A stretch of DNA of 64,000 nt, taken from a bacterium. GTDB lineage: Bacteria; AUK180. The translations under genes and the position numbers were made by a program. The stretch is from positions 10,941 to 74,940 of the forward strand of contig JAGLGN010000020.1 in the NCBI GenBank assembly GCA_023144005.1, read 5' to 3'. Below, in pieces: positions 11,783 through 52,621 of the stretch. The notes below the pieces were generated by a model, which saw only the letters and a list, made by a program, of their open reading frames with translations, did no database searches and was not told the DNA's origin. Each line of letters begins with the position of its first letter. Within the stretch, counting starts at the first letter, position 1.

Positions 11783-11990
11783 AGAATTAGAGGCTAGAGG
11801 CCTATGGAGAAGTGAATAGTGAACAATGAATAGTGAATATTGGGGAGGGGAATAAATACAATTGAAAGTTGACAATTAAAAGATGGAGCACAAAGAAATT
11901 CTTTTCTCAGACGGTTTTCCGGTTACGGATGTGTTTACTTTTCCTTTACACACTTGTGCCTTGTGCACTTGTCACTTGTTTCTTGTTTGC
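11783..11990. repeat. Cluster of intergenic short-period word repeats (GAGGCTAGAGG; TGAATAGTGAACAATGAATAGTGAATA; GGTTTTCCGGTTACGGATGTGTTT; CACTTGTGCCTTGTGCACTTGTCACTTGT)
   Basis: The same modules recur in either orientation at 13234-13269, 19794-19999, 25386-25507, 26270-26360, 34588-34690, 36590-36620, 43269-43288 and 52426-52588. Confidence 0.7.
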
Positions 11991-12012: not shown

Positions 12013-13150
12013 ATGCAGAAGGCAATACAAATGAAAATACTCTCATATAAAAATCCTCATAGCTTTCTTAAAGCTTCGGAAGGGATACTCCTTGCTGATG
12101 AAGCTCTGAACAGCTTGATGATCGGCATCACCATGCGCCTTCAGAAAGATCCTTCGGCATATGAGAACCCCTATTTCACATGTGGGATTATTGACGGTAT
12201 CGTGACCACACCTGCATTAATGACCCCTCCTCATCCATTGATACTTGCAGGCAAAGCAGACCCCAAGATACTTTCTGCCATTGCAGAAGATCTATTGGAC
12301 AAAGACAGGAAAGTAAATGGCGTTGTGGCTTCACGGGCTTTATCAGATAGCTTTTCCACGATATGGAAGAAGCGGACGGGATGCAGCATTGTAACATCTA
12401 TGGAACAAGGAGTTTTTCAATTGACTCATCTTAATACGATCAATATATCTCCGGGATCTCTGCGAGTTGCTGAAGAAAAAGACAGGGAACTTTTGAATAG
12501 GTGGGGAAAGAATTTTCAGATCGACATCTACGGCGAAGAAAAAGGAGCCGGACTGGAAGCGAAAAAAATAGTAGATAAAGGGCTGCGGGAGAAAAGGATA
12601 CACCTGTGGACAATTGACGGCAATCTAGGTGATCTAATTCATAAAGACGGTAACAATGGAATGTTTAGATTTGAGTCAATTCCAACGAACAATGAGTGCT
12701 GTGTACCCTTCGTGGTACATAAGCGAAGAGAGAGGAATAAATTGACCAAAGATGATATTCCCTTCGGGCTGAAGCCATTTTTCTGTCTTCTGCGTTGCTC
12801 GTCCCTTACATACCGCTACGGGTATGCGGCGCTCCTCGCGCCTTGAATACGGAACAAAGTAGCATCAGCCATTGTTACCGTATTTATGAATCAGAACACT
12901 TGCATCAATGGCCGCATCGGCGAGGCCCACAATGAACGGCGTAGCGGTGAATTTTGTCTATACCCCGCCGGAATTCCGTAAGAATGGTTACGCCTCTTCC
13001 TGTGTATGGGCATTAAGCAAGAAATTACTACGGTCGGATCATAGTTTTTGTACTCTTTTCACGGATCTTTCAAACCCGACATCGAATGCCATCTATAAGA
13101 ATATCGGTTATCAGCAAATAGACGAATTTGTTATGTACAAATTTCTCTGA
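12013..13150 (+). pseudogene. GNAT-family N-acetyltransferase disrupted by a MITE-like insertion (frameshift)
   Basis: The 5' part (frame 1, MQKAIQMKILSYKNPH... through ...TIDGNLGD) and the 3' part (frame 2, ...NGVAVNFVYTPPEFRKNGYASSCVWALSKKLL, GNAT motif A/B) are separated by a ~269-bp element. That element is bounded by inverted repeats. The ORF-track start at 11869 (TTG) would translate repeat DNA. Confidence 0.5.
12634..12902. mobile_element. MITE-like element with ~26-34 nt terminal inverted repeats (CTAATTCATAAAGACGGTAACAATGG ... CCATTGTTACCGTATTTATGAATCAGAACACTTG) inserted in the GNAT gene
   Basis: The left and right ends are reverse complements (23/26 identical). A second copy of the same ends lies at 52403-52621. 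The stretch translates to a low-complexity, non-protein-like sequence. Confidence 0.5.
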
Positions 13151-13282
13151 ACTAAAACTCTCTTATCTTAGTGTTCCGGGTTCACAAGTTGAGAATATTT
13201 GTTGGAGATCAGAATTCTCTGTGTTATATTTTTAAATTGTCAACTGTCAATTATCCATTGTCAATTTCTCTTTTTCACTTCT

Positions 13283-19793: not shown

Positions 19794-19999
19794 GTGCACA
19801 AGCGCACAAGCGCACAAGGCACAAGTGTGTAAGGGAAAAGGAAACACATCCGTAACCGGAAAATTGTTTAGGATAAGAATCTCTTTGTGTTCTATCTTTT
19901 AATTGTCAATTGTCCATTGTCAATTATGTTTAGTCCCTTGTCCCTTGAGCCTTGAAACTTGTCCCCTGTCCACTTGTGCCTTGTACCTTGTGCCTTGTC
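19794..19999. repeat. Intergenic word-repeat cluster (GCACAAGC x3; AAACACATCCGTAACCGGAAAA; TTAATTGTCAATTGTCCATTGTCAATT; CCCTTGTCC/CACTTGTGCCTTGT arrays)
   Basis: Tandem 8-bp-period units. Same module family as 11783-11990 and 25386-25507. Confidence 0.7.
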
Positions 20000-25359: not shown

Positions 25360-25385
25360 TTAAGAATCTTTTTGAATTCTAATTT

Positions 25386-25507
25386 TTAATTGTCAATTTC
25401 TCTATAATCACTGCGAAGCGTCATTCTTCATTGTATTTTCCCACTTTACACTTCACACTTTCTTTTACACTTGTCCCTTGTACACTTGTGCCTTGTGCCT
25501 TGTGTTC
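25386..25507. repeat. Intergenic word-repeat cluster (TTAATTGTCAATTTC; CACTGCGAAGCGTC; TGTATTTTCCCACTTTACACTTCACAC; CACTTGTCCCTTGTACACTTGTGCCTTGTGCCTTGTG)
   Basis: A 40-nt core (TGTATTTTCCCACTTTACACTTCACAC) is shared with 26295-26340. Both lie in upstream regions of minus-strand genes. Confidence 0.7.
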
Positions 25508-26196: not shown

Positions 26197-26269
26197 AACA
26201 ACCTCCTGTAATTAAAATATAGTTATCTCATTCCTCTTTTTCTCTTCTCTAATTCTTCATTTCTTAATT

Positions 26270-26360
26270 CTTCATTGTTCATTATTCATTGTTCATTGTT
26301 CACTGTATTTTCCCACTTTACACTTCACACTTCACACCTCACACTTTCTTCTGCACCTGT
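26270..26360. repeat. Intergenic word-repeat cluster (TTCATTGTTCA x4 tandem; CACTTCACAC x3 tandem)
   Basis: Period-8 tandem units. TTCATTGTTCATT is the reverse complement of the AATGAACAATGAA module at 11811-11841. Confidence 0.7.
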
Positions 26361-29300
26361 CTACTTGAGTATAACACACTTACCCTGGATCTGCTCGCCT
26401 GCTTCGTCGGTAATAATGTATATATATACCCCTGAAACGACCTTTTTTCCTCTGCGTGTCCTAAGGTCCCAGGTGTGATCGATCAATTCCGGCTGCATTT
26501 TAATTACAAATTCTCCTGAAATACTGTATATCGCAATACTTGAATTCTCAGTGAGATTGGCAAATGTGATATGTTCAATACCCATATTGCTGCTCCACGG
26601 AACGGGATAAACCACGACATCGCCAAGGCCTTGAGCATAATTGTTCACCGCATCAAAATCCTGTACCTGGCTTATCGTCAGGTCAATGAACTGAGCCGTC
26701 TCCGGAGTATATTTATAAAGCCCTACTTCAGGAGTAACCGTATATGTCGCGCCTGCATCAAGGTCCGTAAACAAGTAATATCCTGAAATATCAGTATAAA
26801 CTTCCGTTGTGGAAGCACCCGTAAGAACAACCTTGATATCCGCCAAAGGAGTTATCCCTGACATAATATTTCCGCTTATCGACCATGAATTCAATGTTCC
26901 GGTGAAGTCCACATCAGAAACATTCGCACTCAAAACAGTACAATTGGTATTTGCGGGGCTGAATTCATAATGCGTATGCGAAGGCGTGACCGTATAATCT
27001 TTGCCCGCATCAAGACCGGCAAAGGAATAATTACCGCTGCCGTCAGTCGTCGTTGATGCTGTCGCATAACCGCTCAGATCCACGGTAGCACCGCTTATCG
27101 GATTTGTGCCGTCGGTGATGTTCCCTGAGATATCCCATGTATTCAGAGTTCCCGTAAAATCAGAGCTCGAGATATCCGAGCTGATATTATTATACGAATT
27201 GCTGGGAGCCGCAAAGGTGTAATGCGTCATTGACGGTGTAACCGCAAAGTCCTCACCCGCATTCAAACCGGCAAAGGAATAGTTCCCACTGCCGTCTGTC
27301 GTAGTTGTAGCAGAGGCATAGCCGCTCAGATCGACCGTAACACCGCTTATCGGGTTCGCGCCATCTGTTATCGTGCCTGAAATGGTCCATGTATTCAATA
27401 TGGCAGTGAAATCAGTTGAGGTTTCATCCGCGCTCAAATCTGTATGCTCTGTACTTGTAGGAGCAAAGGAATAATGCGTGAGTGATGGAGTAACGGTATA
27501 ATCTCCGCCAGCGTCAAGGCCGGCAAAGGAATAATTGCCGCTGCCGTCGGTAACAGCAAAGGTAGTCGCTGAGCCGGTGAGATCCACGGTGACACCAGAA
27601 AGCGGGGTAGCCCCATTAGTAATGGTGCCCGAGATATCCCAGGTTTTCAATGTACCGGTAAAATCATTTCCGGTATCATTCGCGCTGAGATCCAGGATCG
27701 AAATATTCACGGGAGCAAATATATAATGCGTATGAGATGGTGTCATGGTATAATCACCACCTGCGTCAAGATCGGCAAAGGAATAATTACCGCTGCCGTC
27801 AGTAACAGTCGTGGCGGTAGCCGAGCCAGAAAGGTCGACTGTAACGCCGCTTATCGGGTTAGTGCCGTCGGTGATCGTCCCAGAAATGTCCCATGTATCG
27901 ATCGTCCCTGTGAAATCGGTATTGTTGCGATCGCCTCCCAAATTAAAATGGGTGGTCCCTGAAGGTACGAACATGTAGTGTGTGTATGACGGTGTAACCG
28001 TATATGTCGCTCCCGCGTCAAGCCCGGCAAAGGAATAATTACCGCTGCCGTCGGTCGTAGTTGATGCTGACACATAACCGCTCAGATCGACCGTAACTCC
28101 GCTTAACGGATCAGTGCCGTCTGTGATCGTGCCTGATACATCCCATGTATTAAGAGTTCCAGTGAAATCGGTCGCGGTTTCATCCGCGCTAAGATCGGTA
28201 TATGTGGTACTTATAGGAGCGAATGTATAATGCGTGAGTGACGGCGTGACCGTATAATCACCGCCCGCATCAAGCCCGGCAAAGGAATAATTACCGCTGC
28301 CGTCAGTTGTCGTTGTAGCAGTTGCCGAACCCGAAAGATCGACAGTAACTCCGCTTAACGGATTAGCGCCGTCCGTGATCGTTCCCGAGATATCCCATGT
28401 ATTAAGGGTTCCTGTAAAATCAACTGATGTCTGATCGCTGTCCAATGAAGCGATATCCGTAAATGACGGTGAGAACGAATAATGTGTAAATGATGGGGTG
28501 ACAGTATAGCTTTCACCATGAGGGACATCCGCGAACGAATAATTTCCGCTGCCATCAGTAACGGTGGAAGCCGAACTGTATCCGCTCAGATCAACCGTAA
28601 CTCCAGCCATCGGAACTGCACCATCGGTTATCGTGCCCGAGATGGTGTGCGGAAGAGATTTTGTGATTACATCAAGCTCATCCGAAGCATCCCTTGAAAG
28701 AGGGATGCAATTCTTGGCTACGACCAAGTAAAAATATCCTGTCGCGGGTGTCAAGCCAGAGTCAGCAAATGTCAAAGCATTGGTATCCGAAGCGAGCAGA
28801 GTCGCAGTAATAGTATCCACCGGCGTCGTGCCGCTTCTGTAAAGATCGTATATAACCTCTTCTATCGTCTGCTGGGCATCTGTTGCCGCATCCCAGACAA
28901 TAGTTATCGCATTGTAAGTAACAACAGTCGAATCTATATTAGAAATACCTGAAACAGCCCAGTCTGGTGCGGTTGTATCCGCAGGATCACATGCAGGCAA
29001 AGTTGCAATCGCTAGCTCGTCCGATGCCTCCCTTTCAAGCGGCACACAATTGCGTACGACAACTTTATAATAATATGTCGTCTCCATTGTCAGTCCCGTA
29101 TCCAGATATGTATTTGCTTCAGTATCTTCAACTATCGGTGTCAATGAACTTGTGTCAGAAATTGTAACGGTATCTCTGTACAGATCATAGGTAAGAGGCA
29201 ATGTGTCGTTCTCAAGATCAGAGGCCGCATCCCATTCCAAGTCAATAGATGTGTGGGATATTGCCGTTGAACAGATATTCGAGACCCCTGAAACTGTCCA

Positions 29301-32300
29301 ATCCGCAGCGGTAACATCGGCGGGATCGCAGATGACAGGTAGCGGAGCGGTATTTATATCGGCTACTGAACGGGGGTTCAATCTATAATAATCGTATCCG
29401 TATAATAACACACCCGTTAATTGACTTATCGTCTGGCCTGCCGTCATCTCGGCATGGTAAAAAGCATCATCACAGCCGAGTATCTTGGTTCCAGCGGAAT
29501 CCCTGAACTCCCAATAGCCGTGATTTCCGGTGGTCGAACTCACCACAACATCATAGAATGTCACAAGGACACCTTCATACGCTTCAGGTACGAGATCGCA
29601 ATTGGCGCCTTCCGGATCATTGTCTCCGATCTCTTCCACAGTTGTAGTGGTCGCATTTGTGGAATTGCCGGAAGAATTCACGGCATAAGCTGTAATCGTG
29701 TTGATCTGAGAAAGCCCGAAATACTCGTCAACCGTACCGGTAATGGTAATATTATCCCCTATAACAGGGAAATTTGTGAAGTCATAGACATAAATACCGT
29801 TCCAAGCGCCATCGGCATCGGTAATAATATATTTATTCGTACCGACCGCAGTAACATTCCCCGTCAAGGTAACTTCTTCCGCTTCTCTTGGAGAATCGTA
29901 GCATTCCGATCCGACGCTTCCTGTAAATTGTATACTGTAGATAGTATCAACCGGAACGGCCGGCGTAATAACGGTCAGCTCATCAGAGGAATCCCTTGAA
30001 AGCGGAACACAATTGGAAACCGTGACAAGATAATAATATGTATTGGAAGCGGAAACCGTATTGTCAGCGTATGTAGTAAGAACCGTATTATTGGCAAGTA
30101 ATGTTGCGGTTGTCGTATTGAGCGGCGTTGAATTACTTCTATAAAGATCGTATGTCAATGCCTGCGTATTGTTATCACTGTCGGATGCGGCATCCCATGA
30201 AAGCGCAACGGATGTCTGCGAAACAGAAGTGCTATCCAGATTGGAGATCCCTGAGACAGTCCAATCAGGCGCTGTAGTATCCGAATCATCACAAAGAGAA
30301 GCCCCGGAAGTGTCAATATCGGCTGCTGAGCGGGGGTTCAATCTATAATAATCGTATCCGTATAATAACACACCCGTTAATTGACTTATCGTCTGGCCTG
30401 CCGTCATCTCGGCATGGTAAAAAGCATCATCACAGCCGAGTATCTTGGTTCCAGCGGAATCCCTGAACTCCCAATAGCCGTGATTTCCGGTGGTCGAACT
30501 CACCACAACATCATAGAATGTCACAAGGACACCTTCATACGCTTCAGGTACGAGATCACAATTGGCGCCTTCCGGATCATTGTCTCCGATCTCTTCCACC
30601 GTTGTTGTAGTGGCGTTTACAGGATTACCGGAAGAATTCAAGGTATATGAAGTGATCGTAGTAAGTTCAGTCAAACCGAAATACTCATCTACCGTGCCGG
30701 TAATAGTAATATTATCCCCTACCGTAGGAGTGTAATTGGAGTCATAAACATATAAGCCGTTCCATGCACCATCCGCATCGGAGATAACATATTTTCCGGT
30801 TGCGATTGCCGTAACAACACCTGTAAGGGTGACCTCTTCCGCATCCCTGGGAGAGTCATAACATCCGGATCCAAGAGTTCCTGTAAATTGCACACTGTAG
30901 ATAGTATCCCCTGCCGGGCCGGCGGGAGTTGTAGTTTTAACCTCATCGGAAGCTTCCTTTTCAAGAGGCACACAGTTCTTTGCCGCTATTTTGTAATAGT
31001 ATGTATTTTCAGGAACCACTGTGCTATCCGCATATGCTGTACCCGTAAGATTCGATGCGACAACGGTAGCTGTAGATGTATCGACAGGCGTAGAACCGCT
31101 TCGGTAAAGGTCATAGGTCACGGCTTCTGTCGTATTTTCAGTATCCGCGGCAACTCCCCAACTGAGAGTTATCGAGCTTGATGCGGTATTTGTAACGGCG
31201 ATATCCGATACTCCGCTCACCGTCCAATCTGGAGGTGTCGTGTCACTGTCATCACAGGCAGCAAGCGTCTCCCTCTGAATAAATTCATCCCAATTGCTTG
31301 TAGTAGCGATCAGCGTCGAGTCATAATACGCGTCATAATCCAATTCATCTAAGGGATAATAGATACCGGTCCCGTAACAATCATTTCCCGTCTCGGCAAA
31401 ATTATTTGTGACCGCATTAGTAATGGCCGTTCTAACTGCTGCAGAGCTGTCCTTCAAAGATTGCGGTACCGCCTGGGCCTCTAATTTCAAACAGAAATCG
31501 TAAAGATCTATCTGATCGTAATAAGGGTAAGAAGAGTCAAGTTCAAAGGTATTGGCTCTTGCGTTTTGTATCTGCGTGCCATATGAGCTCAAATTCTGTC
31601 TGAGCTTGATCGCGAAAGAATTGATCGCGGGTGTCAGGCCTGAAGATACCTGCGCGAGGTCCAGGGCAGATTGTGTCCATCCGTTTGATCCACTTTCTCC
31701 CGCAGCATATGCGTCAACTACCGAATTTGCCAATGCCACAGGTGTAATTGTCCCTCCACTGCTCACAATATCATTCAGAAACGGTGTATAAGACCATCCG
31801 TCAAGCCACTCCGACATCTCTGATGCCACCATATAATCAAAATACGGAGCTGATTCCGCATTATTTTCCCACATCTGGTCAAGACATACATCATAACCCA
31901 CTATGTCGAGTTTTGAGCCGTAATAAGTATATATCTCTTTAAAAGCCGTACCAAGTTCACCGAGCATACCCGGAGTGCCTGAAGTGAAATATAAGTAATC
32001 GCCACTTGTATCATCCGAGGAAGCGCCCTTGTAAGAGGCAAGATTATCCTCGACTTTCCGCCAGCCGTCACCATGATCCCAGATCACCAGCATATAATGC
32101 TCGGCGGGGTAATTATCCCTCACCCATTTTCCGAAGGAGACCAATGTATCGCCATCTCCCATATTTGCCTCTCCGATATCCGAAACAGCGTTTGCAATTG
32201 TCGGAGTCATCCCGGAGGTAATATAATATCTCTTAGTTGAGGTCCAGTCGTCGTATAATGAAGAATAACCACCGATCCTGTCCATCTGGACAACGATATT

Positions 32301-34532
32301 CAGATTAGCATCAGAACCGACAGCGGACATTTCCAGAAAATCATCAATGCCGTCTGCTTCAAGATTATTGTCACAGTTAAGAAACACCGCGACGGTCCAT
32401 TTCGGCAATACGCTTTCGGGGGTATTTATCTCTACTTCATCGGAGGCAGTCATAGAAAGCGGAACACAATTGGATGCCACTACTTTATAATAGTAAGTGG
32501 TGCCGCCGGAAAGAGAGCTGTCCGTATAGGAAGTTGAAGTGATCCCTGCGGTCATCAATATCGCCGTTGTAGTATCCACAGGTGATGTCTCACTTCTATA
32601 AAGGGCATAAGTTATGGCCTCTGTATCATTTTCCGCATCCGTTGCGGAATCCCAGGCCAATGCCGCGGATGATGATGTGATCAAGGTTGAATCGATGTTT
32701 GAAACACCTGAGACCGACCAATCCGGAGCAGTTGTATCTCCATTATCACAAGCATTCACTGAAGGGCTGGTATCTATATCCGAAGCGGAGCGGGGATTCA
32801 ATCTGTAATGATCATAAGTGTAAAGGAGAACTCCCGTGATCTGTGAAATAGTCTGGCCGTTCGCGAGATCGGCAAGGTAGAAACTATCGTCACAGCTCAA
32901 TTCAAGGGTTCCCGACTGATCCTTGATCTTCCAATATCCGTAAGTACTTAAAGGCGAGCTGACAACAACATCATAAAGCGTCACAAGAACACCCTCATAC
33001 TCCTCCGAGTCGGCATTACAGTCCGCTCCCCATTGGGAAGAGCCGCCGATACTTTCACATGTAACGGTAGCAGGAGTTACAGAATTTCCCGAAGAATTCA
33101 AGGTATATGAAGTAACAGTCGCGATCTCGGTAAGGCCGAAATATTCATCCACTATACCGGTTATTGTAATATTGTCTCCAACGGATGGGGAATAATTGCT
33201 GTCATAAATATAAACCCCGTTCCATGCGCCGTCAGCATCGGCGAAAACATATTTTCCAGTGCCTATTGCGGTAACGATGCCTGTCAGGGTAACCTCTTGT
33301 GTTTCTCTGGGGGAATCGTAGCATTCACTTCCCACAGTCGCCGTGTTCTGAACACTATATATCGTATCTGTGGTCTCCGCGGGAGTTGTTATCTCGATCT
33401 CGTCTGAAGCGGTTCTGGTCACAGGTACGCAATTTGATGCCACGACCTTGTAGTAATATGTTGTTTCTGCTGAAACAGTATTATCCGTAGCACTGGTGGA
33501 TGTGGTTCCAGAAGCTACCAGAGTTGCCGTAGCGGTATCAACAGGAGATGTTCCACTTCTATACAGGTAATATGAAATTGCAAATGTATCATTCTCAACT
33601 TCGGAGGACGCGTCCCACATAAGCGTGACCTGATCCGCCAGAAGTGAGGATGTCTCAATGTTTGACACTCCTGAGACCGCCCAGTCCGGAGGTGTCGTAT
33701 CGGAATCGTCGCACCCGGCGCATGTACCGCCCCATACATCACATACCCATTCGGGGTGATCTATATACGGATTTCTGTTGCCCTGGATCGCGTAAACCGC
33801 GTCGTTTCTGTCTATTTCCTTCTGGCTGACCGGATCTGCGTTATGCCATTCCAGGAACATATCATACGCCCAGGCCTGAAATCCGGGATATGATGTACCG
33901 TTGAAGCTGGTATCGGTCGTGTCCCAGGAATCGATCCGGTCTTCGTACCTTGTCACAGTATAGAAATAGGTTCTTGCAAAATCGCCCTTATATTCATCAA
34001 TGGGTTCAAATATCGCTCCAGAATAACCCGCGTATGAACAACTTCCGACCTTCGAACCATTCGTCGATGTCCAGGTCGGGCTTGAGGTTTCACCGAAGGG
34101 GTAATTTGATCTTCTCCCGTTGACATATCCATCGGTCGGATATACCATAAAAAGATCAGTGTACATGGGAGAAGAGCTCCCGAACCAGCTTGAAGGGATA
34201 GAATGCTCTCTATTATAGCAATCCGCTTCACTGTTATAGGTTCCGCATTGATTCGAACCATGTGTATAAGTGTATGCGGGAGTGCCGCCGGGAACAGTGG
34301 AGTACATATCCCATACGGTATTCGCGCCCGTATTATCAGTGGTCTGATAGGCGATATAAAGGGAATCATAGCTCTGACTGGAATGTCCGTCAATAATATA
34401 GTGAAGATTCGTCTTTAATGTAGCTCCGGTACCCGTAGCTGTATCATAATAGCCTGCGGGAATAGCCGCAAACAGAAGCTGTGAAAACGCGAAAAATGCA
34501 AGAAAGATCAACTTGGTAACTTTCATAGACAC
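26361..34532 (-). CDS. Giant T9SS-secreted multidomain protein (2723 aa): N-terminal Endonuclease I (EndA/Vvn family) nuclease, Fn3 and beta-sandwich repeats, clostripain-like (peptidase C11) domain, ~10 CarboxypepD_reg-like repeats, and a Por-secretion C-terminal domain
   Basis: Endonuclease I motifs: NREHSIPSSW (cf. EWEHVVPAW), VNGRRSNYPF (cf. VNGDRSNFNF), KGDFARTYFYT (cf. RGSIARTYLYM) and GNRNPYIDHPEW (cf. GNHNPFV). C11 motifs: NCDNNLEADG, VIWDHGDGW (catalytic His) and VGYDVCLDQM (catalytic Cys, near nt 31885). Repeated ISGTITDG...GVTVDLSG...TDGSGNYSF units. C-terminal ...VSGVYIYIITDEAGEQIQGKCVILK. The likely true start is the ATG at 34526 (MKVTKLIFLAFFAFSQLLFA signal peptide); the ORF-track start at 34532 is GTG. 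Confidence 0.8.
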   Translation of the reverse strand: MSMKVTKLIFLAFFAFSQLLFAAIPAGYYDTATGTGATLKTNLHYIIDGHSSQSYDSLYIAYQTTDNTGANTVWDMYSTVPGGTPAYTYTHGSNQCGTYNSEADCYNREHSIPSSWFGSSSPMYTDLFMVYPTDGYVNGRRSNYPFGETSSPTWTSTNGSKVGSCSYAGYSGAIFEPIDEYKGDFARTYFYTVTRYEDRIDSWDTTDTSFNGTSYPGFQAWAYDMFLEWHNADPVSQKEIDRNDAVYAIQGNRNPYIDHPEWVCDVWGGTCAGCDDSDTTPPDWAVSGVSNIETSSLLADQVTLMWDASSEVENDTFAISYYLYRSGTSPVDTATATLVASGTTSTSATDNTVSAETTYYYKVVASNCVPVTRTASDEIEITTPAETTDTIYSVQNTATVGSECYDSPRETQEVTLTGIVTAIGTGKYVFADADGAWNGVYIYDSNYSPSVGDNITITGIVDEYFGLTEIATVTSYTLNSSGNSVTPATVTCESIGGSSQWGADCNADSEEYEGVLVTLYDVVVSSPLSTYGYWKIKDQSGTLELSCDDSFYLADLANGQTISQITGVLLYTYDHYRLNPRSASDIDTSPSVNACDNGDTTAPDWSVSGVSNIDSTLITSSSAALAWDSATDAENDTEAITYALYRSETSPVDTTTAILMTAGITSTSYTDSSLSGGTTYYYKVVASNCVPLSMTASDEVEINTPESVLPKWTVAVFLNCDNNLEADGIDDFLEMSAVGSDANLNIVVQMDRIGGYSSLYDDWTSTKRYYITSGMTPTIANAVSDIGEANMGDGDTLVSFGKWVRDNYPAEHYMLVIWDHGDGWRKVEDNLASYKGASSDDTSGDYLYFTSGTPGMLGELGTAFKEIYTYYGSKLDIVGYDVCLDQMWENNAESAPYFDYMVASEMSEWLDGWSYTPFLNDIVSSGGTITPVALANSVVDAYAAGESGSNGWTQSALDLAQVSSGLTPAINSFAIKLRQNLSSYGTQIQNARANTFELDSSYPYYDQIDLYDFCLKLEAQAVPQSLKDSSAAVRTAITNAVTNNFAETGNDCYGTGIYYPLDELDYDAYYDSTLIATTSNWDEFIQRETLAACDDSDTTPPDWTVSGVSDIAVTNTASSSITLSWGVAADTENTTEAVTYDLYRSGSTPVDTSTATVVASNLTGTAYADSTVVPENTYYYKIAAKNCVPLEKEASDEVKTTTPAGPAGDTIYSVQFTGTLGSGCYDSPRDAEEVTLTGVVTAIATGKYVISDADGAWNGLYVYDSNYTPTVGDNITITGTVDEYFGLTELTTITSYTLNSSGNPVNATTTTVEEIGDNDPEGANCDLVPEAYEGVLVTFYDVVVSSTTGNHGYWEFRDSAGTKILGCDDAFYHAEMTAGQTISQLTGVLLYGYDYYRLNPRSAADIDTSGASLCDDSDTTAPDWTVSGISNLDSTSVSQTSVALSWDAASDSDNNTQALTYDLYRSNSTPLNTTTATLLANNTVLTTYADNTVSASNTYYYLVTVSNCVPLSRDSSDELTVITPAVPVDTIYSIQFTGSVGSECYDSPREAEEVTLTGNVTAVGTNKYIITDADGAWNGIYVYDFTNFPVIGDNITITGTVDEYFGLSQINTITAYAVNSSGNSTNATTTTVEEIGDNDPEGANCDLVPEAYEGVLVTFYDVVVSSTTGNHGYWEFRDSAGTKILGCDDAFYHAEMTAGQTISQLTGVLLYGYDYYRLNPRSVADINTAPLPVICDPADVTAADWTVSGVSNICSTAISHTSIDLEWDAASDLENDTLPLTYDLYRDTVTISDTSSLTPIVEDTEANTYLDTGLTMETTYYYKVVVRNCVPLEREASDELAIATLPACDPADTTAPDWAVSGISNIDSTVVTYNAITIVWDAATDAQQTIEEVIYDLYRSGTTPVDTITATLLASDTNALTFADSGLTPATGYFYLVVAKNCIPLSRDASDELDVITKSLPHTISGTITDGAVPMAGVTVDLSGYSSASTVTDGSGNYSFADVPHGESYTVTPSFTHYSFSPSFTDIASLDSDQTSVDFTGTLNTWDISGTITDGANPLSGVTVDLSGSATATTTTDGSGNYSFAGLDAGGDYTVTPSLTHYTFAPISTTYTDLSADETATDFTGTLNTWDVSGTITDGTDPLSGVTVDLSGYVSASTTTDGSGNYSFAGLDAGATYTVTPSYTHYMFVPSGTTHFNLGGDRNNTDFTGTIDTWDISGTITDGTNPISGVTVDLSGSATATTVTDGSGNYSFADLDAGGDYTMTPSHTHYIFAPVNISILDLSANDTGNDFTGTLKTWDISGTITNGATPLSGVTVDLTGSATTFAVTDGSGNYSFAGLDAGGDYTVTPSLTHYSFAPTSTEHTDLSADETSTDFTAILNTWTISGTITDGANPISGVTVDLSGYASATTTTDGSGNYSFAGLNAGEDFAVTPSMTHYTFAAPSNSYNNISSDISSSDFTGTLNTWDISGNITDGTNPISGATVDLSGYATASTTTDGSGNYSFAGLDAGKDYTVTPSHTHYEFSPANTNCTVLSANVSDVDFTGTLNSWSISGNIMSGITPLADIKVVLTGASTTEVYTDISGYYLFTDLDAGATYTVTPEVGLYKYTPETAQFIDLTISQVQDFDAVNNYAQGLGDVVVYPVPWSSNMGIEHITFANLTENSSIAIYSISGEFVIKMQPELIDHTWDLRTRRGKKVVSGVYIYIITDEAGEQIQGKCVILK
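29364..30610. repeat. Internal tandem duplication inside the 2723-aa gene: ~290-bp blocks at 29364-29650 and 30324-30610 are >99% identical (960-bp period)
   Basis: Antisense shadow ORFs 29421..29999 and 30381..30650 share identical N-termini. The encoded segments (ATTTTVEEIGDNDPEGANCDLVPEAYEGVLVTFYDVVVSSTTGNHGYWEFRDSAGTKILGCDD...) are repeated almost exactly. A third, ~75% identical copy lies near 32770-33060. Confidence 0.75.
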
Positions 34533-34568: not shown

Positions 34569-34773
34569 TACCGATTAAGCAAAAAGAAGTTCCAGGTTCA
34601 AAGGTTCACAAGTGTTAACGTATGATGTGTAGCGTGTCAAGTGAAATGTAATAAATATTCACACCCGTAACCGGAAAATCGTTATTTCGTTTCTTTCATT
34701 AAAATCACCCGTTATAATAATAGAACGCCGGAGCGAAGTAAGATGTGGGACACGCCGTACTCCGCAGGAGTTC

Positions 34774-34913
34774 GACTGTCCCGATGTAAAAGTTCCAAGC
34801 AAAGAGTTGACAGGAAGCGAAGCGTGTAAACTCTTTGCCCCGTTAGAATCAAACGGAAACATTCTCCACACATCTTTGAATGTTATCCCCTTTCTCTTTA
34901 GTCATTCCCGTGC
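34774..34913. repeat. ~125-bp conserved intergenic element, copy A (contains 10-bp inverted repeat GCAAAGAGTT...AACTCTTTGC)
   Basis: About 90% identical to copy B at 36661-36779 (GACTGTCCC...CCAAGCAAAGAGTTGACAGGAAGCG[A/T]AGCGTGTAAACTCTTTGCCCCGTTAGAATCA...TTGAATGT..CATTCCCGTG). Copy A carries a 16-nt indel. Confidence 0.6.
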
Positions 34914-34990
34914 AGTTTACCCCGATTACATCGGGGATCGGGAATCCATCTTACTCCACCTTTCAACTTTTGAACTTTTGAACATTCTTT

Positions 34991-36501: not shown

Positions 36502-36660
36502 TTGTTGTATTTTACATCATTTACCGGAATTGTCCAAATATGGGACAAGCTTCGCAGTGCACCAGTGGACCCAGGGACAAGTGTCCCAGTAGTGAAGGAA
36601 AAGAGAAACACACCCGTAACACAAGAAAAGAGGGACATGCCGTCGACAACTTATTGGCAC

Positions 36661-36779
36661 GACTGTCCCGGATAAAGGTACCAAGCAAAGAGTTGACAGG
36701 AAGCGTAGCGTGTAAACTCTTTGCCCCGTTAGAATCACACGGGAACATCCTCCACACATATTTGAATGTCATTCCCGTG
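36661..36779. repeat. ~125-bp conserved intergenic element, copy B
   Basis: See copy A at 34774-34913. Located ~160-280 nt upstream of the DUF1007/NicO operon start. Confidence 0.6.
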
Positions 36780-36865
36780 AAAGAGGAAATTCATCCCTCT
36801 CTACCTTGTGTTTTTGTTTCTTGTGCACTGCGAAGCATACCCACCTCGCACATCACACATTTGAC

Positions 36866-38230: not shown

Positions 38231-41200
38231 TTACTCCTCGCCTCTTCTGAAATACACGGTCAGCACTATTGCTTCAGAACCGTCCACTGGACGGACCACA
38301 AGGAAATACACACCGGAGAGCAATTTATTACCTGACTCGTCTTCGGCTATATTCAACAGCATAGGCCCGTTTTCGGCAGATTCCCAGCTCATTAACTCTG
38401 AACCTCCCGCATCATATAGAGAAAGACCGTCGTCAGCCGCAAGATCGGTTACGCGGATAGTTCCCGTTGTGGGATTGGGGATCACGATGCATTGGTCATA
38501 TGTTTTAAAAGCGGTAAAATCACAATCGATAATTCCCGCGGAAAGATCAGTATATGTTCTGAATGCCGGGGTGTAGCTATAACCGGGAGCTGCGACCGAA
38601 ACCGTATATGTCTCTCCGGCATCAAGACCGGTGAATGTGAAAACACCCAGAATATTTGTCGAGACATTCATTTCCGCGCCACCTGTGACGGTGACAATTA
38701 GATCCGAAATGACGGAATCCGACAATTCATCGGTAACTTTTCCCTGTATGTCCCACTTATCGACCTGACCGGTGAAATCCGCATTTGATACGGATGAGGA
38801 AAGCTCGGTATAATTATGTGAGGCAGGGGTGAAAGTATAATGCGTGAGTGAAATAGTAACACTGTATGTCTCACCGCCGGGAAGATCGTCAAATCGATAG
38901 TACCCGGTGGCAGAAGTTAACAAGGATCCTGTAGAAAATCCCGACAGATCCACGCTTGCAGAAGAAATGGGATCACCCACACCATCCTCAACAATACCGG
39001 ATATGGTCCACTTGTCGTAAGCAGCCGTGAAATCGTTGGCTTCTGAATTATTGCTGAGATCAGGGACCGTTCTGGATGCCGGGACAAATGAATAATTTGT
39101 AAGTGAAGGAGTTATCGTATATGGGGACCCCGCAGGAAGATCACTGACAATGTAATATCCTGAGGCGTTCGTAGTCGTCGGCGTATCTGTAGTACCGTCT
39201 GAAACCGTTACAGTTACACCGGAAAGAGGCGAACTGTCTTCGGTGATGGTGCCGTCGAGGTACCATGTATTGATCACTGCGACATAGTCATCATCCTGGT
39301 TCGCGCTCGTATCCGAAAATGTCCTGGAAACCGGATCAAAAGTATAATGTGTCTTTGACAGTGTAACGGTATAAGTGGCATGGACAGGAAGGCCGGTGAA
39401 TGAAAAATTCCCGGAAGCATTTGTTACAGTGGTTCCGGTCGAATCACCCGAAAGGTCTGCAGTCACCCCTTCCAGAGGTGTGCTCATCGAATATCCGTCC
39501 CAAACGGTACCAGCGATGTTCATCGTCAACAGAGTCGCGTCAAATGGAGGGAAGATTAAATGATTTGTAATAAGATCGGAAATTTCCACTTCCGTTGGCG
39601 AAAACGAATACTGTAGATGAGAAGGTGTAAAGGTATAAGTGCCGCCCGCAGACAGATTTTCAAAAATGAAATATCCTGCTCCATCGGTTATTCTGCTTCC
39701 AGTGGAATCTCCTGTAAGATTAACGGCTATACCGGAAAATGGCGATCCATCAAGCTCTACATTACCTTCTACTTGGTAAAGGTGAAGCGTTCCTGTAAAA
39801 TCCTGATTCGTCATATCCCCGGAAAGATCGGGAAGTGTCCGTGAGGAGGGCGCAAAACCGTAATAAAGAGGATCAGGAGTAATAGTAAATGTTCCGCCCT
39901 GAAGAAGATTTGCGAACTCATAATAACCCGAAGCGTCAGTAATAGTGTTTCCCGTGGAATCTCCGCTTAGGGAAACCGAAACACCCTCAAGAGCAACTAC
40001 CATTGAATCCGCTATCGAGCCCGAGATCGTTGCGACGGGATCGGAAAGGGTACAGTCAAGGATGAAATACCCTCCCAGTTTGTCGCCTACAAAAATATAT
40101 TCCGAGTCGGCGTAGATGCAGTACGCCGAACCTGTAGTTTCATAATAACCCACTTCGGAAGGAGATGTGGGGTCAGAAACGTCCAGGATCCTGAGGCCGG
40201 CGGTATTGGCCGCTACATACAAATATCCGTTCTGATACCACACATCCACCGCTTCACCAAGTGTATTGTGGTAGGTTTCCAGAGACGGCGCAGAAGGGGT
40301 GGTGATATCTATTATCGCGACACCCGAATTTCCATCGGCGACAAAGGCATGATTTCCGTAGACTGCAACCCCGTTGGAAACACCGGTTGTATTATAATCT
40401 CCGACCTCAGTAGGTGAATCAGGATTTGAAACATTGAGGACCTTGAGGCCGTCAGCGCCGGAAGCCACATAGGCATAATCATTTACAACATACACATCAT
40501 ATACATACGATGGAACGGTATAAGAGCTCCGTTCCGTAGGAGAATCAGGAGTGGACACATCTATGATCCTCAAGCCGCCGGCCATATCCGCATCATAAAT
40601 ATCTGTTCCGTAGAGAAATATTTTAGTTGCCTCGTCCGGTGTATCGCACACTGCTAGGGCGGTCATTGAAGACGGATTACTGATATTCCAGACCCGGACC
40701 CCACTAATGTAGTCAGCTATATAGAGGTAATTTCCGGAGACGATAACATCCCTGGCATACCATCCGGTCGCCTTACTTTCAAGTACCTCTGGGTTATATG
40801 GGTCGGTAATGTCTACTGAAGTGATCCCCATGGAATCATTGGCAACATACAGATAATTGCCCTGACGCCAGATACCGTAAACATTTCCGGGAACATCAAG
40901 AACCGCTTTTTCAGAAACATTAGAGATATTTGTTACATCAAGAACTGAGAGTCCCCCTCTGCCGGCGGCAACATAGAGGTCGTTTCCGTTTACCGCCACG
41001 CCCCACGAGTAGCCATTCGCGTAAAATTGGTCCTCCTCCTGCATAAGGAACATCGCCATGGAATCATCCCATGTTTGTGAATAGGTCCTTATTCCGCCTG
41101 TATAATCGGCAACGAATGCCTCACTGCTGGAATTGTAAACGACATCTTTTGAGCTACTGGTAGTAAAGAAGTCCTCAACCATTGGGAAGCTGGGCACACT

Positions 41201-41884
41201 CACTATCTTACTCAGTTGGGAACCCGAACAAACCAATACAGGCTCAATACTGGCCGGATCATGTGTAATGCTCACTGCACTGCCTGGTACGGGAACACTA
41301 CCGGAATGAGTAATAGCGTAGGGATCTGAAATATCAAGACAATACATTCCGTCGGGACCGCCTGCCACATACAGCGTATTGGAAGCGAGCGATAGACTGA
41401 CGCCGTATCCTTCCTTAGCGGTATACTCGTCGGTCAGTGTAGGCGTATCGGAAGCGGTCACATCAAAGACCTTGACCCCATTGGCGGCAAAGCCGACATA
41501 GGCATAATTTCCGCTTGCCCAGACTCTCTGCGAGCTGGAAGCATAATATTCTCCCACATATGAGGGATTAAGCCGATCTGTAATATCAAGGACTACCAGA
41601 CCGTCATACAGATCAGTATAATAAAGACGGTTGCCGTCAACATAAACGTCATTTACTCTTTGAGTAGTGTCGTAGTAATTGACAAGCGCAGGATCCGTCG
41701 GAATTGATATATCATAGATACCTATGAATCCGTATGCCGCGGTATAAAGATATGTATCTGAATACGCTACTTTTTTGGGATCGCCTTCGAGCACAAAAGA
41801 TATCAGATCTACATTGGACGAGGCACCAGATACATAAGAAACACTCAGTAACATCAATATAACAAAAATAAATAATCGCTTCAT
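38231..41884 (-). CDS. T9SS-secreted LVIVD-repeat beta-propeller protein (1217 aa) with CarboxypepD_reg-like repeats and a Por-secretion CTD
   Basis: Signal peptide. Repeated ~45-aa units of the LVIVD type (...YDGLVVLDITDRLNPSYVGEY..., GLRILDVSDPTSPSEVGYY..., GVAIIDITTPSAPS...). Then six units of the form ISGSIADS...GVSVSLSGDSTGNTITDASGYYEF. C-terminal ...LLSGVYFLVVRPVDGSEAIVLTVYF. Confidence 0.7.
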   Translation of the reverse strand: MKRLFIFVILMLLSVSYVSGASSNVDLISFVLEGDPKKVAYSDTYLYTAAYGFIGIYDISIPTDPALVNYYDTTQRVNDVYVDGNRLYYTDLYDGLVVLDITDRLNPSYVGEYYASSSQRVWASGNYAYVGFAANGVKVFDVTASDTPTLTDEYTAKEGYGVSLSLASNTLYVAGGPDGMYCLDISDPYAITHSGSVPVPGSAVSITHDPASIEPVLVCSGSQLSKIVSVPSFPMVEDFFTTSSSKDVVYNSSSEAFVADYTGGIRTYSQTWDDSMAMFLMQEEDQFYANGYSWGVAVNGNDLYVAAGRGGLSVLDVTNISNVSEKAVLDVPGNVYGIWRQGNYLYVANDSMGITSVDITDPYNPEVLESKATGWYARDVIVSGNYLYIADYISGVRVWNISNPSSMTALAVCDTPDEATKIFLYGTDIYDADMAGGLRIIDVSTPDSPTERSSYTVPSYVYDVYVVNDYAYVASGADGLKVLNVSNPDSPTEVGDYNTTGVSNGVAVYGNHAFVADGNSGVAIIDITTPSAPSLETYHNTLGEAVDVWYQNGYLYVAANTAGLRILDVSDPTSPSEVGYYETTGSAYCIYADSEYIFVGDKLGGYFILDCTLSDPVATISGSIADSMVVALEGVSVSLSGDSTGNTITDASGYYEFANLLQGGTFTITPDPLYYGFAPSSRTLPDLSGDMTNQDFTGTLHLYQVEGNVELDGSPFSGIAVNLTGDSTGSRITDGAGYFIFENLSAGGTYTFTPSHLQYSFSPTEVEISDLITNHLIFPPFDATLLTMNIAGTVWDGYSMSTPLEGVTADLSGDSTGTTVTNASGNFSFTGLPVHATYTVTLSKTHYTFDPVSRTFSDTSANQDDDYVAVINTWYLDGTITEDSSPLSGVTVTVSDGTTDTPTTTNASGYYIVSDLPAGSPYTITPSLTNYSFVPASRTVPDLSNNSEANDFTAAYDKWTISGIVEDGVGDPISSASVDLSGFSTGSLLTSATGYYRFDDLPGGETYSVTISLTHYTFTPASHNYTELSSSVSNADFTGQVDKWDIQGKVTDELSDSVISDLIVTVTGGAEMNVSTNILGVFTFTGLDAGETYTVSVAAPGYSYTPAFRTYTDLSAGIIDCDFTAFKTYDQCIVIPNPTTGTIRVTDLAADDGLSLYDAGGSELMSWESAENGPMLLNIAEDESGNKLLSGVYFLVVRPVDGSEAIVLTVYFRRGEE

Positions 41885-43263: not shown

Positions 43264-43287
43264 AGGAAAGAGGCTAGAGGTTAGAGG

Positions 43288-43815
43288 TTAATTCAGAGGG
43301 GAATATTTTTTATCGAGATAAATTGAGATGTGATTGCCTTCTATATCCCCATTTATTGTATGTATATCAACCTCTTCACCGCCATAAACAAATGCTTCAA
43401 TGATCCCGTCTTTGTCAGTATATACCTGGAAATAGGCGTATGCCATCAGAGTATTTCTACCATTATGTGTGATGGCTTCTTTTCCAATGCTCTCTTTTAT
43501 TTCATCCAAATCTCCTTCGTTTGCATGAACCCCCGCAAAGTAAGAGAGTTTTGAGCCATCGGTAAAATTTACGACAAGCTCAGGTTCGCCCCACTTTTCC
43601 GGCAGTGATTTCAATTCCTTCCCAGCCTCAAGGTCGCCATAGTGTCGATTTCGATATCTTTGAAGTTTAGTTCCAATTATTCTGGGATCCGTAAGATTAT
43701 TGTAGACTAGGAACCACACATATAACAATGGCACCGAAATTATTAAGCAAACAACAAGAAGACCGCTATCAAATTTCCGCTGTTTTCTCTTTCCGTTTTC
43801 CATATTATCGTTCAT
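43288..43815 (-). CDS. Hypothetical membrane-anchored protein (single N-terminal TM)
   Basis: ORF of 175 aa with the hydrophobic segment LLVVCLIISVPLLYVWFLVY. Confidence 0.35.
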   Translation of the reverse strand: MNDNMENGKRKQRKFDSGLLVVCLIISVPLLYVWFLVYNNLTDPRIIGTKLQRYRNRHYGDLEAGKELKSLPEKWGEPELVVNFTDGSKLSYFAGVHANEGDLDEIKESIGKEAITHNGRNTLMAYAYFQVYTDKDGIIEAFVYGGEEVDIHTINGDIEGNHISIYLDKKYSPLN

Positions 43816-45566: not shown

Positions 45567-45600
45567 AGTTTTTCTCCTTATTATCAGTTATCAGTTATCA

Positions 45601-45716
45601 GGGACGTTGGTGAAGAGTGTGAAGAGTTTGAAGGTATTCAGAAAACAATATCCCCATAATTCCTATACTTATATAATATGGACTAAGCCAACTCTTCACA
45701 CTCTTCACCACCGTCC
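45601..45716. repeat. MITE-/REP-like element: 27-bp near-perfect inverted repeat (GGACG[T/G]TGGTGAAGAGTGTGAAGAGTT) around a ~60-nt loop
   Basis: Arms at 45601-45628 and 45690-45716 differ by 1 mismatch. Sits between the PP-loop gene stop and the cupin gene start. A 15/17-nt direct copy of the arm end (TTCTTCACCACCGTCCC) lies at 46784-46800, at the other end of the PP-loop gene. Confidence 0.55.
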
Positions 45717-52402: not shown

Positions 52403-52621
52403 AGTGTTCTGATTCATGAAATAGAGGCTAGAGGTTCGAGGTTGGTGAAGGGAAGATTGTTCAAAAGTTCAAGGTTAAGGTAAAATCTCTTTTTACTCTA
52501 TCTTATAATTGTCAACTGTCAATTGTGTATAATCATCCTTTAGTTTCCCACTTGTCACTTGTGCTCTTGTCACTTGTGCTCCTATCAACCATTGTCATCG
52601 TATTTATGAATCAAAACACTG
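52403..52621. mobile_element. MITE-like element (second copy of the TIR family that disrupts the GNAT gene), with internal word-repeat modules
   Basis: Ends AGTGTTCTGATTCATGAAATA (52403-52423) and CCATTGTCATCGTATTTATGAATCAAAACACTG (52589-52621) are inverted and match the ends of the 12634-12902 element. Sits precisely between two divergent predicted promoters. Confidence 0.45.

Follow-up and report, generated by a model that had tools for sequence, protein, structure and literature searches.

Several groups of short bacterial repeats resemble the element described below in one respect or another. Correia elements (NEMIS or CREE), which are confined to Neisseria, are about 100–160 bp long, carry inverted ends of about 26 bp and are present in hundreds of copies; they duplicate a TA target, sometimes lie inside or beside genes, and form hairpins in transcripts, and we know of no transposase for them. 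The BOX repeats of pneumococci and the BIMEs of enterobacteria are without long terminal inverted repeats, and they do not usually insert exactly into coding genes. REPINs pair two short REP sequences that have a conserved 5′ GTAG-type motif, and go together with a linked single-copy RAYT gene. Among the DNA transposons, the ends of IS5-family members usually begin with GG or GA, and TWA duplications of 3 bp characterise the Harbinger-type transposons, which are relatives of the IS5 family found in eukaryotes.

In the 64-kb stretch of DNA analysed here (the window), a gene for a GNAT acetyltransferase of an uncultured bacterium is divided by a 271-bp segment (Table 1). The segment is very probably a non-autonomous element of the MITE kind that inserted into the gene and split it. 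The original prediction of a mobile, non-autonomous element bearing terminal inverted repeats is thereby supported by the ends themselves, by intact homologues of the gene, by additional copies and by a homologous repeat found both filled and empty. The inverted ends are real (GTGATCTAATTCATAAAGACGGTAACAATGG on the left, CCATTGTTACCGTATTTATGAATCAGAACAC on the right), and the span first proposed, 12634–12902, is corrected to 12629–12899, with ends reaching 5 nt further outward. With up to three mismatches allowed, the 31-mer end occurs at three sites in the window (12629–12659, 12869–12899 and 52589–52619) and at none in 100 shuffles, and a looser scan of the whole 64 kb recovers four ends only, two at the GNAT locus and two bounding a second element. 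The same ends had been predicted at this second locus and are indeed present there, at 52404–52619 (216 bp) instead of 52403–52621 (219 bp). On its right, 28 of 31 positions agree with the 31-mer. The left end is recognisable over only about 20 nt (GTGTTCTGATTCATGAAATAG, 17/21 to the core GTGTTCTGATTCATAAATACG), and the shorter core recovers it at 52404–52422, in the orientation opposite to 52589–52619. The interior is assembled from short repeat modules, among them a CACTTGT array and a TTGTCAA array; this genome also has such modules near the GNAT gene and in further intergenic regions, and the second locus is an end-bounded element of a mosaic type.

Table 1. Positions of the interrupted gene, the inserted element and its parts, and the second end-bounded element in the window
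Feature	Position	Strand	Description
GNAT 5′ part (FR47/Acetyltransf_1-type)	12013–12628	+	ATG at 12013 or 12031; aligns with residues 1 to ~200 of intact homologues
Chimeric ORF of public assemblies	12031–12846	+	271 aa (277 aa from 12013); GNAT N-terminus plus 72 codons of the element
MITE-like element, non-coding	12629–12899	+	271 bp; whole length forms a long imperfect hairpin
Left terminal inverted repeat	12629–12659	+	31 nt
Right terminal inverted repeat	12869–12899	+	31 nt; 28/31 complementary to the left
Module A	12629–12800	+	Element positions 1–172; duplicated alone in related MAGs (A-A-B arrays)
Module B	12801–12899	+	Element positions 173–271; tandem in related MAGs, usually with 4-nt spacers (A-B-B, A-A-B-B-B)
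GNAT 3′ part	12900–13150	+	(V)ASMAASARPTMNGVAVNFVYTPPEFRKNGYASS... to the stop codon; acetyl-CoA-binding motif region
Second element, intergenic	52404–52619	+	216 bp; left end ~20 nt (52404–52424), right end 31 nt (52589–52619)

The N-terminal part of the GNAT reading frame had been assigned to frame 1 and the C-terminal part to frame 2, and both assignments stand (12013/12031–12628 and 12899/12908–13150), with a shift of one base between them. The coding 5′ part runs as far as ...IHLWTIDGNL and the first base of the codon after it, and exact deletion of the element yields an 867-nt ORF in which the halves are in frame and whose 282-aa product matches Pfam FR47 and Acetyltransf_1. This rejoined product has 233 homologues, of which the intact ones are 281–305 aa long and share 35–40% identity with it. 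In an alignment with 14 intact homologues, the junction (...HLWTIDGNL/VASMAAS...) sits without a gap inside a conserved W-x-D-G-x-P-V-S-M-A-A block, the segment occurs in none of the homologues, and 37 of 37 invariant columns are kept by the rejoined sequence. The split is therefore derived, which disposes of the case, raised with the original prediction, that intact orthologues naturally contain the segment. Apart from the split, the gene bears no further signs of decay.

Insertion of the element at codon ~206 of the ~282-aa acetyltransferase gene has produced a truncated chimeric ORF, in which GNAT residues 1 to ~205 are joined to an element-encoded tail of 66 aa that ends at the stop at 12844–12846, and has left the 3′ fragment detached and in a different frame. 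The enzyme is most likely inactivated as a result. The chimeric ORF of public assemblies is an annotation artefact caused by the insertion: it is the best database match to the rejoined product (P0001, 100% identity over 71% of the query) and is present in another MAG as well (accession MCK5599197.1), and the 3′ part is annotated separately, as a 72-aa FR47 protein. The insertion is found in six of six GNAT-carrying contigs, those retrieved being 99.8–100% identical to the window over the locus. It is not an assembly artefact, since four independent contigs have it in identical or 99.9% identical form and two further assemblies carry it as well. The interrupted allele is the only GNAT allele observed in the sampled population. 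A search for an empty allele was negative, because there is no close intact orthologue among 5.8 billion protein clusters: after the six interrupted contigs, the best GNAT match is only 40% identical.

The ends recur well beyond this gene. A scan with ANCGTNTTTATGAATNANANCAC, limited to one genome per species, returned at least 106 stretches (loci). Two related MAGs, 'bacterium RS_12_30' and 'Candidatus Atribacteria bacterium SFP3_UM_09_14', hold at least 13 full-length copies (269–275 bp, 83–91% identical to the window copy) together with many partial copies, several of them located at contig ends. The window's own species contributes at least three additional copies (L118 978–1248 and 1469–1740, between hisS and fusA; L119 1469–1740), giving at least five end-bounded elements in that species (two in the window, two in L118, one in L119). 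Across 17 copies the 31-nt terminal inverted repeats are conserved, and the mean column identity of the 271-bp family is 90%. The earlier suggestion that the family is defined mainly by its ends thus applies to mosaic elements with other interiors, such as the second locus, and fails for the 271-bp family, which is conserved throughout.

Public databases hold many translations of these copies. A 71-aa peptide read from the element matches 52 protein clusters (P0243–P0294), all of them short 'hypothetical proteins', many exactly 61 aa long and at least 14 from the KAI78 MAG, one of the carriers of the interrupted GNAT gene; two of the clusters led to the three additional copies in L118 and L119. 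These clusters are spurious ORFs across element copies. That the internal 61-aa ORF might be a gene was considered and rejected: the 61-codon frame is open in just 10 of the 17 copies, and substitutions are spread flatly over the three codon positions (40/32/38).

The GNAT copy differs from the 17-copy consensus at 19 positions, five of them private (1.8% of 271 bp), whereas pairwise divergence among the copies in the same alignment is 9–17%. The insertion is consequently young relative to the family, and the word 'recently' in the original prediction can be retained in this relative sense only; such an age is compatible with both GNAT halves remaining open. At 13 element sites that were checked, the GNAT copy alone has a long frame to either side of it (81 codons or more, against fewer than 50 at the others), and selection against genic insertion is indicated because 12 of the 13 sites fall outside any long ORF. 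Searches elsewhere gave little. The literature (MITEs in Desulfobacter; 14-mers of the end) contained no description of this family that we could find, and neither the element nor a Desulfobacterales relative had a blastn match among 72,556 plasmids. The strict 31-nt end pattern matched nothing in JGI metagenome contigs, so that the lineage is absent from that collection, and the end pattern had seven matches to viral contigs, all unrelated and at chance level. The MtnA protein, used for taxonomic placement, has its nearest relative at 62% identity and gave no assignment to a phylum.

The element folds end to end as a single long imperfect hairpin with a minimum free energy of −95.8 kcal/mol, compared with −63.5 kcal/mol for shuffled sequences (z-scores of −7.6 on one strand and −6.8 on the other). 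RNAalifold applied to 14 copies gives the identical foldback, with 80 pairs and no compensatory changes, so that, apart from the palindrome, nothing suggests an RNA structure under selection. Rfam searches returned no match in the whole window at the gathering score and, in 12500–13000 at E ≤ 10, two chance-level matches only, with no intron or ribozyme family among them; a tRNA scan found no tRNA. With no Rfam match and compensatory changes at 0 of 80 pairs, the element does not belong with group I or group II introns or with catalogued RNA elements. Nor does it belong with the in-frame palindromic elements of the Rickettsia type, since its 271 bp break the host frame and bring in the stop at 12844–12846.

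These data bear on the possibility that the GNAT enzyme is still functional, the segment being removed after transcription in the manner of an intron or the two gene parts giving cooperating products. Such an arrangement would fit two halves that are both open and keep every invariant residue, and an insertion that appears fixed in all sampled contigs. It is nonetheless extremely improbable, given that searches up to E ≤ 10 match the segment to no intron or ribozyme family, that the predicted pairs lack compensatory changes, and that none of the other 12 sites checked falls within a long ORF; with a private divergence as low as 1.8%, moreover, the halves could have stayed intact by chance.

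The interior of the element is modular. The same ends also flank elements of 143–680 bp, inside which lie either A and B with deletions or mixtures of other short repeat modules. Half-element arrays with the orders A-A-B, A-B-B and A-A-B-B-B are found in relatives, with B units usually separated by exactly 4 nt (TATA); the junction in L072 (TCAT) is less clear-cut. Unequal arrays of A and B occupy L103 3381–4026, L106 3312–3753, L025 1–400, L047 1–281 and L072 780–1051, and neither simple cut-and-paste nor nested insertion gives an account of them.

Independent duplication of A and B and the shuffling of other short modules between the same ends are what would be expected of a palindromic modular repeat, similar to BIMEs or BOX, that spreads by recombination or slippage and entered the GNAT gene by illegitimate recombination. 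The failure to find either a duplication or a transposase would also follow. We nevertheless regard this origin as very improbable, because the GNAT gene lost no sequence to an insertion that is exact over its whole length, and full-length copies stay at 269–275 bp at many unrelated sites in three genomes. The terminal 26 nt are, furthermore, shared with elements of a different phylum that have unrelated interiors, which points to an enzyme that recognises the ends. In the preferred reading, that of a MITE-kind insertion, the element at 271 bp is too short to encode a transposase, and a transposase encoded elsewhere would recognise the conserved ~26–31-nt ends (GTGYTCTRATTCATAAATACGRTRAC). Such an enzyme would be able to move anything lying between two inverted ends, which would explain mosaic elements like 52404–52619.

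Mobility of the element is evident from homologous sites with and without it. These sites belong to a second repeat family, built of a 10-bp stem (GCAAAGAGTT...AACTCTTTGC) around a loop of ~20 nt and 75–93% identical between genomes. The hairpin repeat is empty of the element in the window (34690–34950 and 36600–36800) and in L006, L031 and L038, and it carries the 271-bp element in its loop in L038, L061, L067, L103, L106 and L025, so that one empty and one filled repeat lie on the single contig L038. Divergence between the paralogues prevents the junctions from being placed to the base.

Further repeats occur throughout the window. The GNAT gene is closely preceded by a 115-nt sequence (11858–11972) that recurs, inverted and 87% complementary, ahead of the gene for a 1782-aa protein (19806–19920); partial copies are found at 13215–13263, 25369–25416 and 52484–52535. 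The intergenic regions are dense in tandem arrays of period 7–8, often arranged as inverted pairs about a core (11811–11839, 11951–11979, 19796–19825, 19901–19999, 25438–25504, 26245–26346, 34961–34983, 43269–43290, 45581–45633, 45691–45708 and 52549–52577), with the units AGTGAAT, CACTTGTG, GCACAAGC, AATTGTC, GTCCCTT, TTCACAC, ATTGTTC, TTTGAACT, TTATCAG and GTGAAGAGT. Similar arrays lie within end-bounded elements of related MAGs and within elements of Desulfobacterales (AAGTTTGA / AAGTGCCT). In coding sequence, two large minus-strand proteins (26361–34532, 2723 aa; 38231–41884, 1217 aa) contain 252-bp (84-aa) tandem repeats and repeats of ~960 bp.

Target-site duplications and a transposase with matching ends had both been looked to as companions of the element; no consistent duplication came to light in this lineage, and no such transposase in the window or at the loci among the matches listed. 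The GNAT copy has no clean duplication (flanks TAG/TTG), and other copies of its own genome are flanked by ATG/TTG, CTA/TAT, TAA/CGA and CTA/TGT. For 23 end pairs with usable flanks, no duplication scheme with lengths of 2–5 and offsets of 0–2 exceeded chance, identical flanking 3-mers being present in two or three of the 23 (TAG/TAG in L060, TAA/TAA in L097, TAAGT in L056). At the GNAT site, the frame is restored both by removal of 271 bp, which gives NLVASMAA and implies no duplication, and by removal of 274 bp, which gives NLASMAA and implies a 3-bp duplication with one mismatch; against a profile of the intact homologues the two excisions score 306.8 and 308.8 bits, respectively, and so lie 2 bits apart. 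The predicted sequences of the empty site are ...GACGGCAATCTAGTTGCATCAATGG... and ...GACGGCAATCTAGCATCAATGG... (or CTTGCATC).

The search for an enzyme covered the window and the loci among the matches listed. Pfam analysis of 20 ORFs of the 64-kb window found no transposase match of any kind, Y1 included, and six unannotated window ORFs, read by eye, resemble membrane or secreted proteins. At 106 loci among the matches listed, no transposase adjoins the ends except for an IS110-like fragment in L012, and among end pairs up to 6 kb apart at these loci none is spaced by more than 700 bp. The L012 fragment, assigned by eye to the IS110 family, lies ~430–1230 nt inward of the end of a Desulfobacterales element and may represent an IS110-type insertion into or beside the repeat.

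Elements with closely similar ends, 127–362 bp long, are carried by at least about 20 Desulfobacterales MAGs (loci within L005–L110, for example L019, L074, L110 and L081). Their left end, GTGCTCTAATTCATAAATACGATGAC, matches the consensus end of this family at 24 of 26 positions, the right end repeats it imperfectly in inverse orientation (...CGTATTTACGAATACATGTAC), and the interiors are unrelated to the 271-bp family. They are flanked on both sides by TTA or TAA, and TWA-flanked pairs are identical in 14 of 16 cases, which constitutes a 3-bp TWA target duplication within CTWAG. Isolated single matches to the ~26-nt end occur in MAGs of Ignavibacteria and Bacteroidetes. The Desulfobacterales elements often lie 20–60 nt upstream of a start codon. 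Another small element was seen in the same group: two orthologous Desulfobacterales contigs that are 93% identical (L065 at ~1325–1575 and L018 at ~1345) differ by an insertion of ~250 bp with inverted ends of its own (GTAATAGTTTAGTCCTTTGAAAC...) and heptamer arrays (ACGATTG, TTTACTG), and form a clean filled/empty pair.

The duplication in the Desulfobacterales relatives helps to decide among possible modes of movement. A hairpin element could travel in single-stranded form under the action of an HUH (Y1) enzyme, as do REPINs with RAYT and palindromes derived from IS200/IS605, which insert without a target duplication. This would suit an element that is one long imperfect hairpin over its whole length on either strand, a lineage in which no consistent target duplication was found, and the failure to find a DDE transposase in the window and at the loci among the matches listed. 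The structure of the ends argues otherwise, as the 31-nt ends are true terminal inverted repeats up to their tips, unlike those of IS200/IS605, and no conserved 4–5-nt target was found adjoining one end only. The 20 window ORFs scanned offer no Pfam match to a transposase of any sort either, and the 3-bp duplication of the relatives is one that HUH transposition does not produce. Movement by an HUH enzyme is therefore improbable.

For the preferred MITE-kind insertion, the near-identical ends of the Desulfobacterales elements and their 3-bp TWA duplication point to an enzyme of the IS5/PIF-Harbinger (PHIS) type. To judge solely from that duplication in relatives, a DDE transposase of this type is the most likely enzyme class, and it would presumably act by cut-and-paste. 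Harbinger-related transposons are reported to make duplications of 0, 2 or 3 bp (PMC12730594). A broader proposal, which we consider doubtful, is that the ~26-nt end marks a widespread superfamily of foldback elements, of which we found no description and which is present at least in Desulfobacterales and in this lineage; no autonomous partner is seen at the loci among the matches listed. If it were true, the elements would be orphans like the Correia elements, their mobilisation would fall to an enzyme of the host, to one so far unrecognised or to a duplication-free mechanism in this lineage, and the interiors made of inverted period-7/8 arrays would be functional, for example as arrays of protein-binding sites, rather than junk.

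A MITE that splits a gene is an ordinary event; of this family we found no description. Two distant lineages have almost identical 26-nt ends, yet no transposase was found in the window or at the loci among the matches listed. Discovery of that enzyme would establish a group of insertion sequences at work in uncultured bacteria of sediments, and would explain the repeat-crowded intergenic regions of these genomes. The family also has practical consequences, as public annotation of the lineage contains dozens of false 'hypothetical proteins' and one GNAT-element chimera (MCK5599197.1), and the element and its relatives break MAG assemblies, with many copies at contig ends.

Among the systems introduced above, REPINs are like this family in being hairpin-forming, intergenic and multi-copy, and they make no target duplication, of which the copies of this lineage show none that is consistent; they differ in that the ends here are 31-nt terminal repeats rather than REP doublets and that the Desulfobacterales relatives do make duplications. 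Membership of the REPIN/RAYT system is also spoken against by the 20 window ORFs scanned, which include no Y1 gene, and by the lack of REP doublets and of a GTAG-type motif. BOX and BIME repeats share with it modules in variable number and order, as in the A-A-B-B-B arrays and the mosaic interiors. Correia elements have an end, TATAGTGGATTAACAAAAACCGGTACGG, which presumably bears a loose resemblance to the TA-GTGTTCTGATTCATAAATACGGTAAC of this family, and they differ from the element here, which is longer and modular. MITEs of the IS5/PIF-Harbinger (PHIS) group differ in that the ends of this family begin with GTG, that no transposase with these ends was found, and that the copies of the window's lineage are without a consistent duplication. 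They are like it in being small, non-coding, bounded by terminal inverted repeats, multi-copy and mostly intergenic, and the Desulfobacterales relatives share with them the 3-bp TWA duplication typical of Harbinger.
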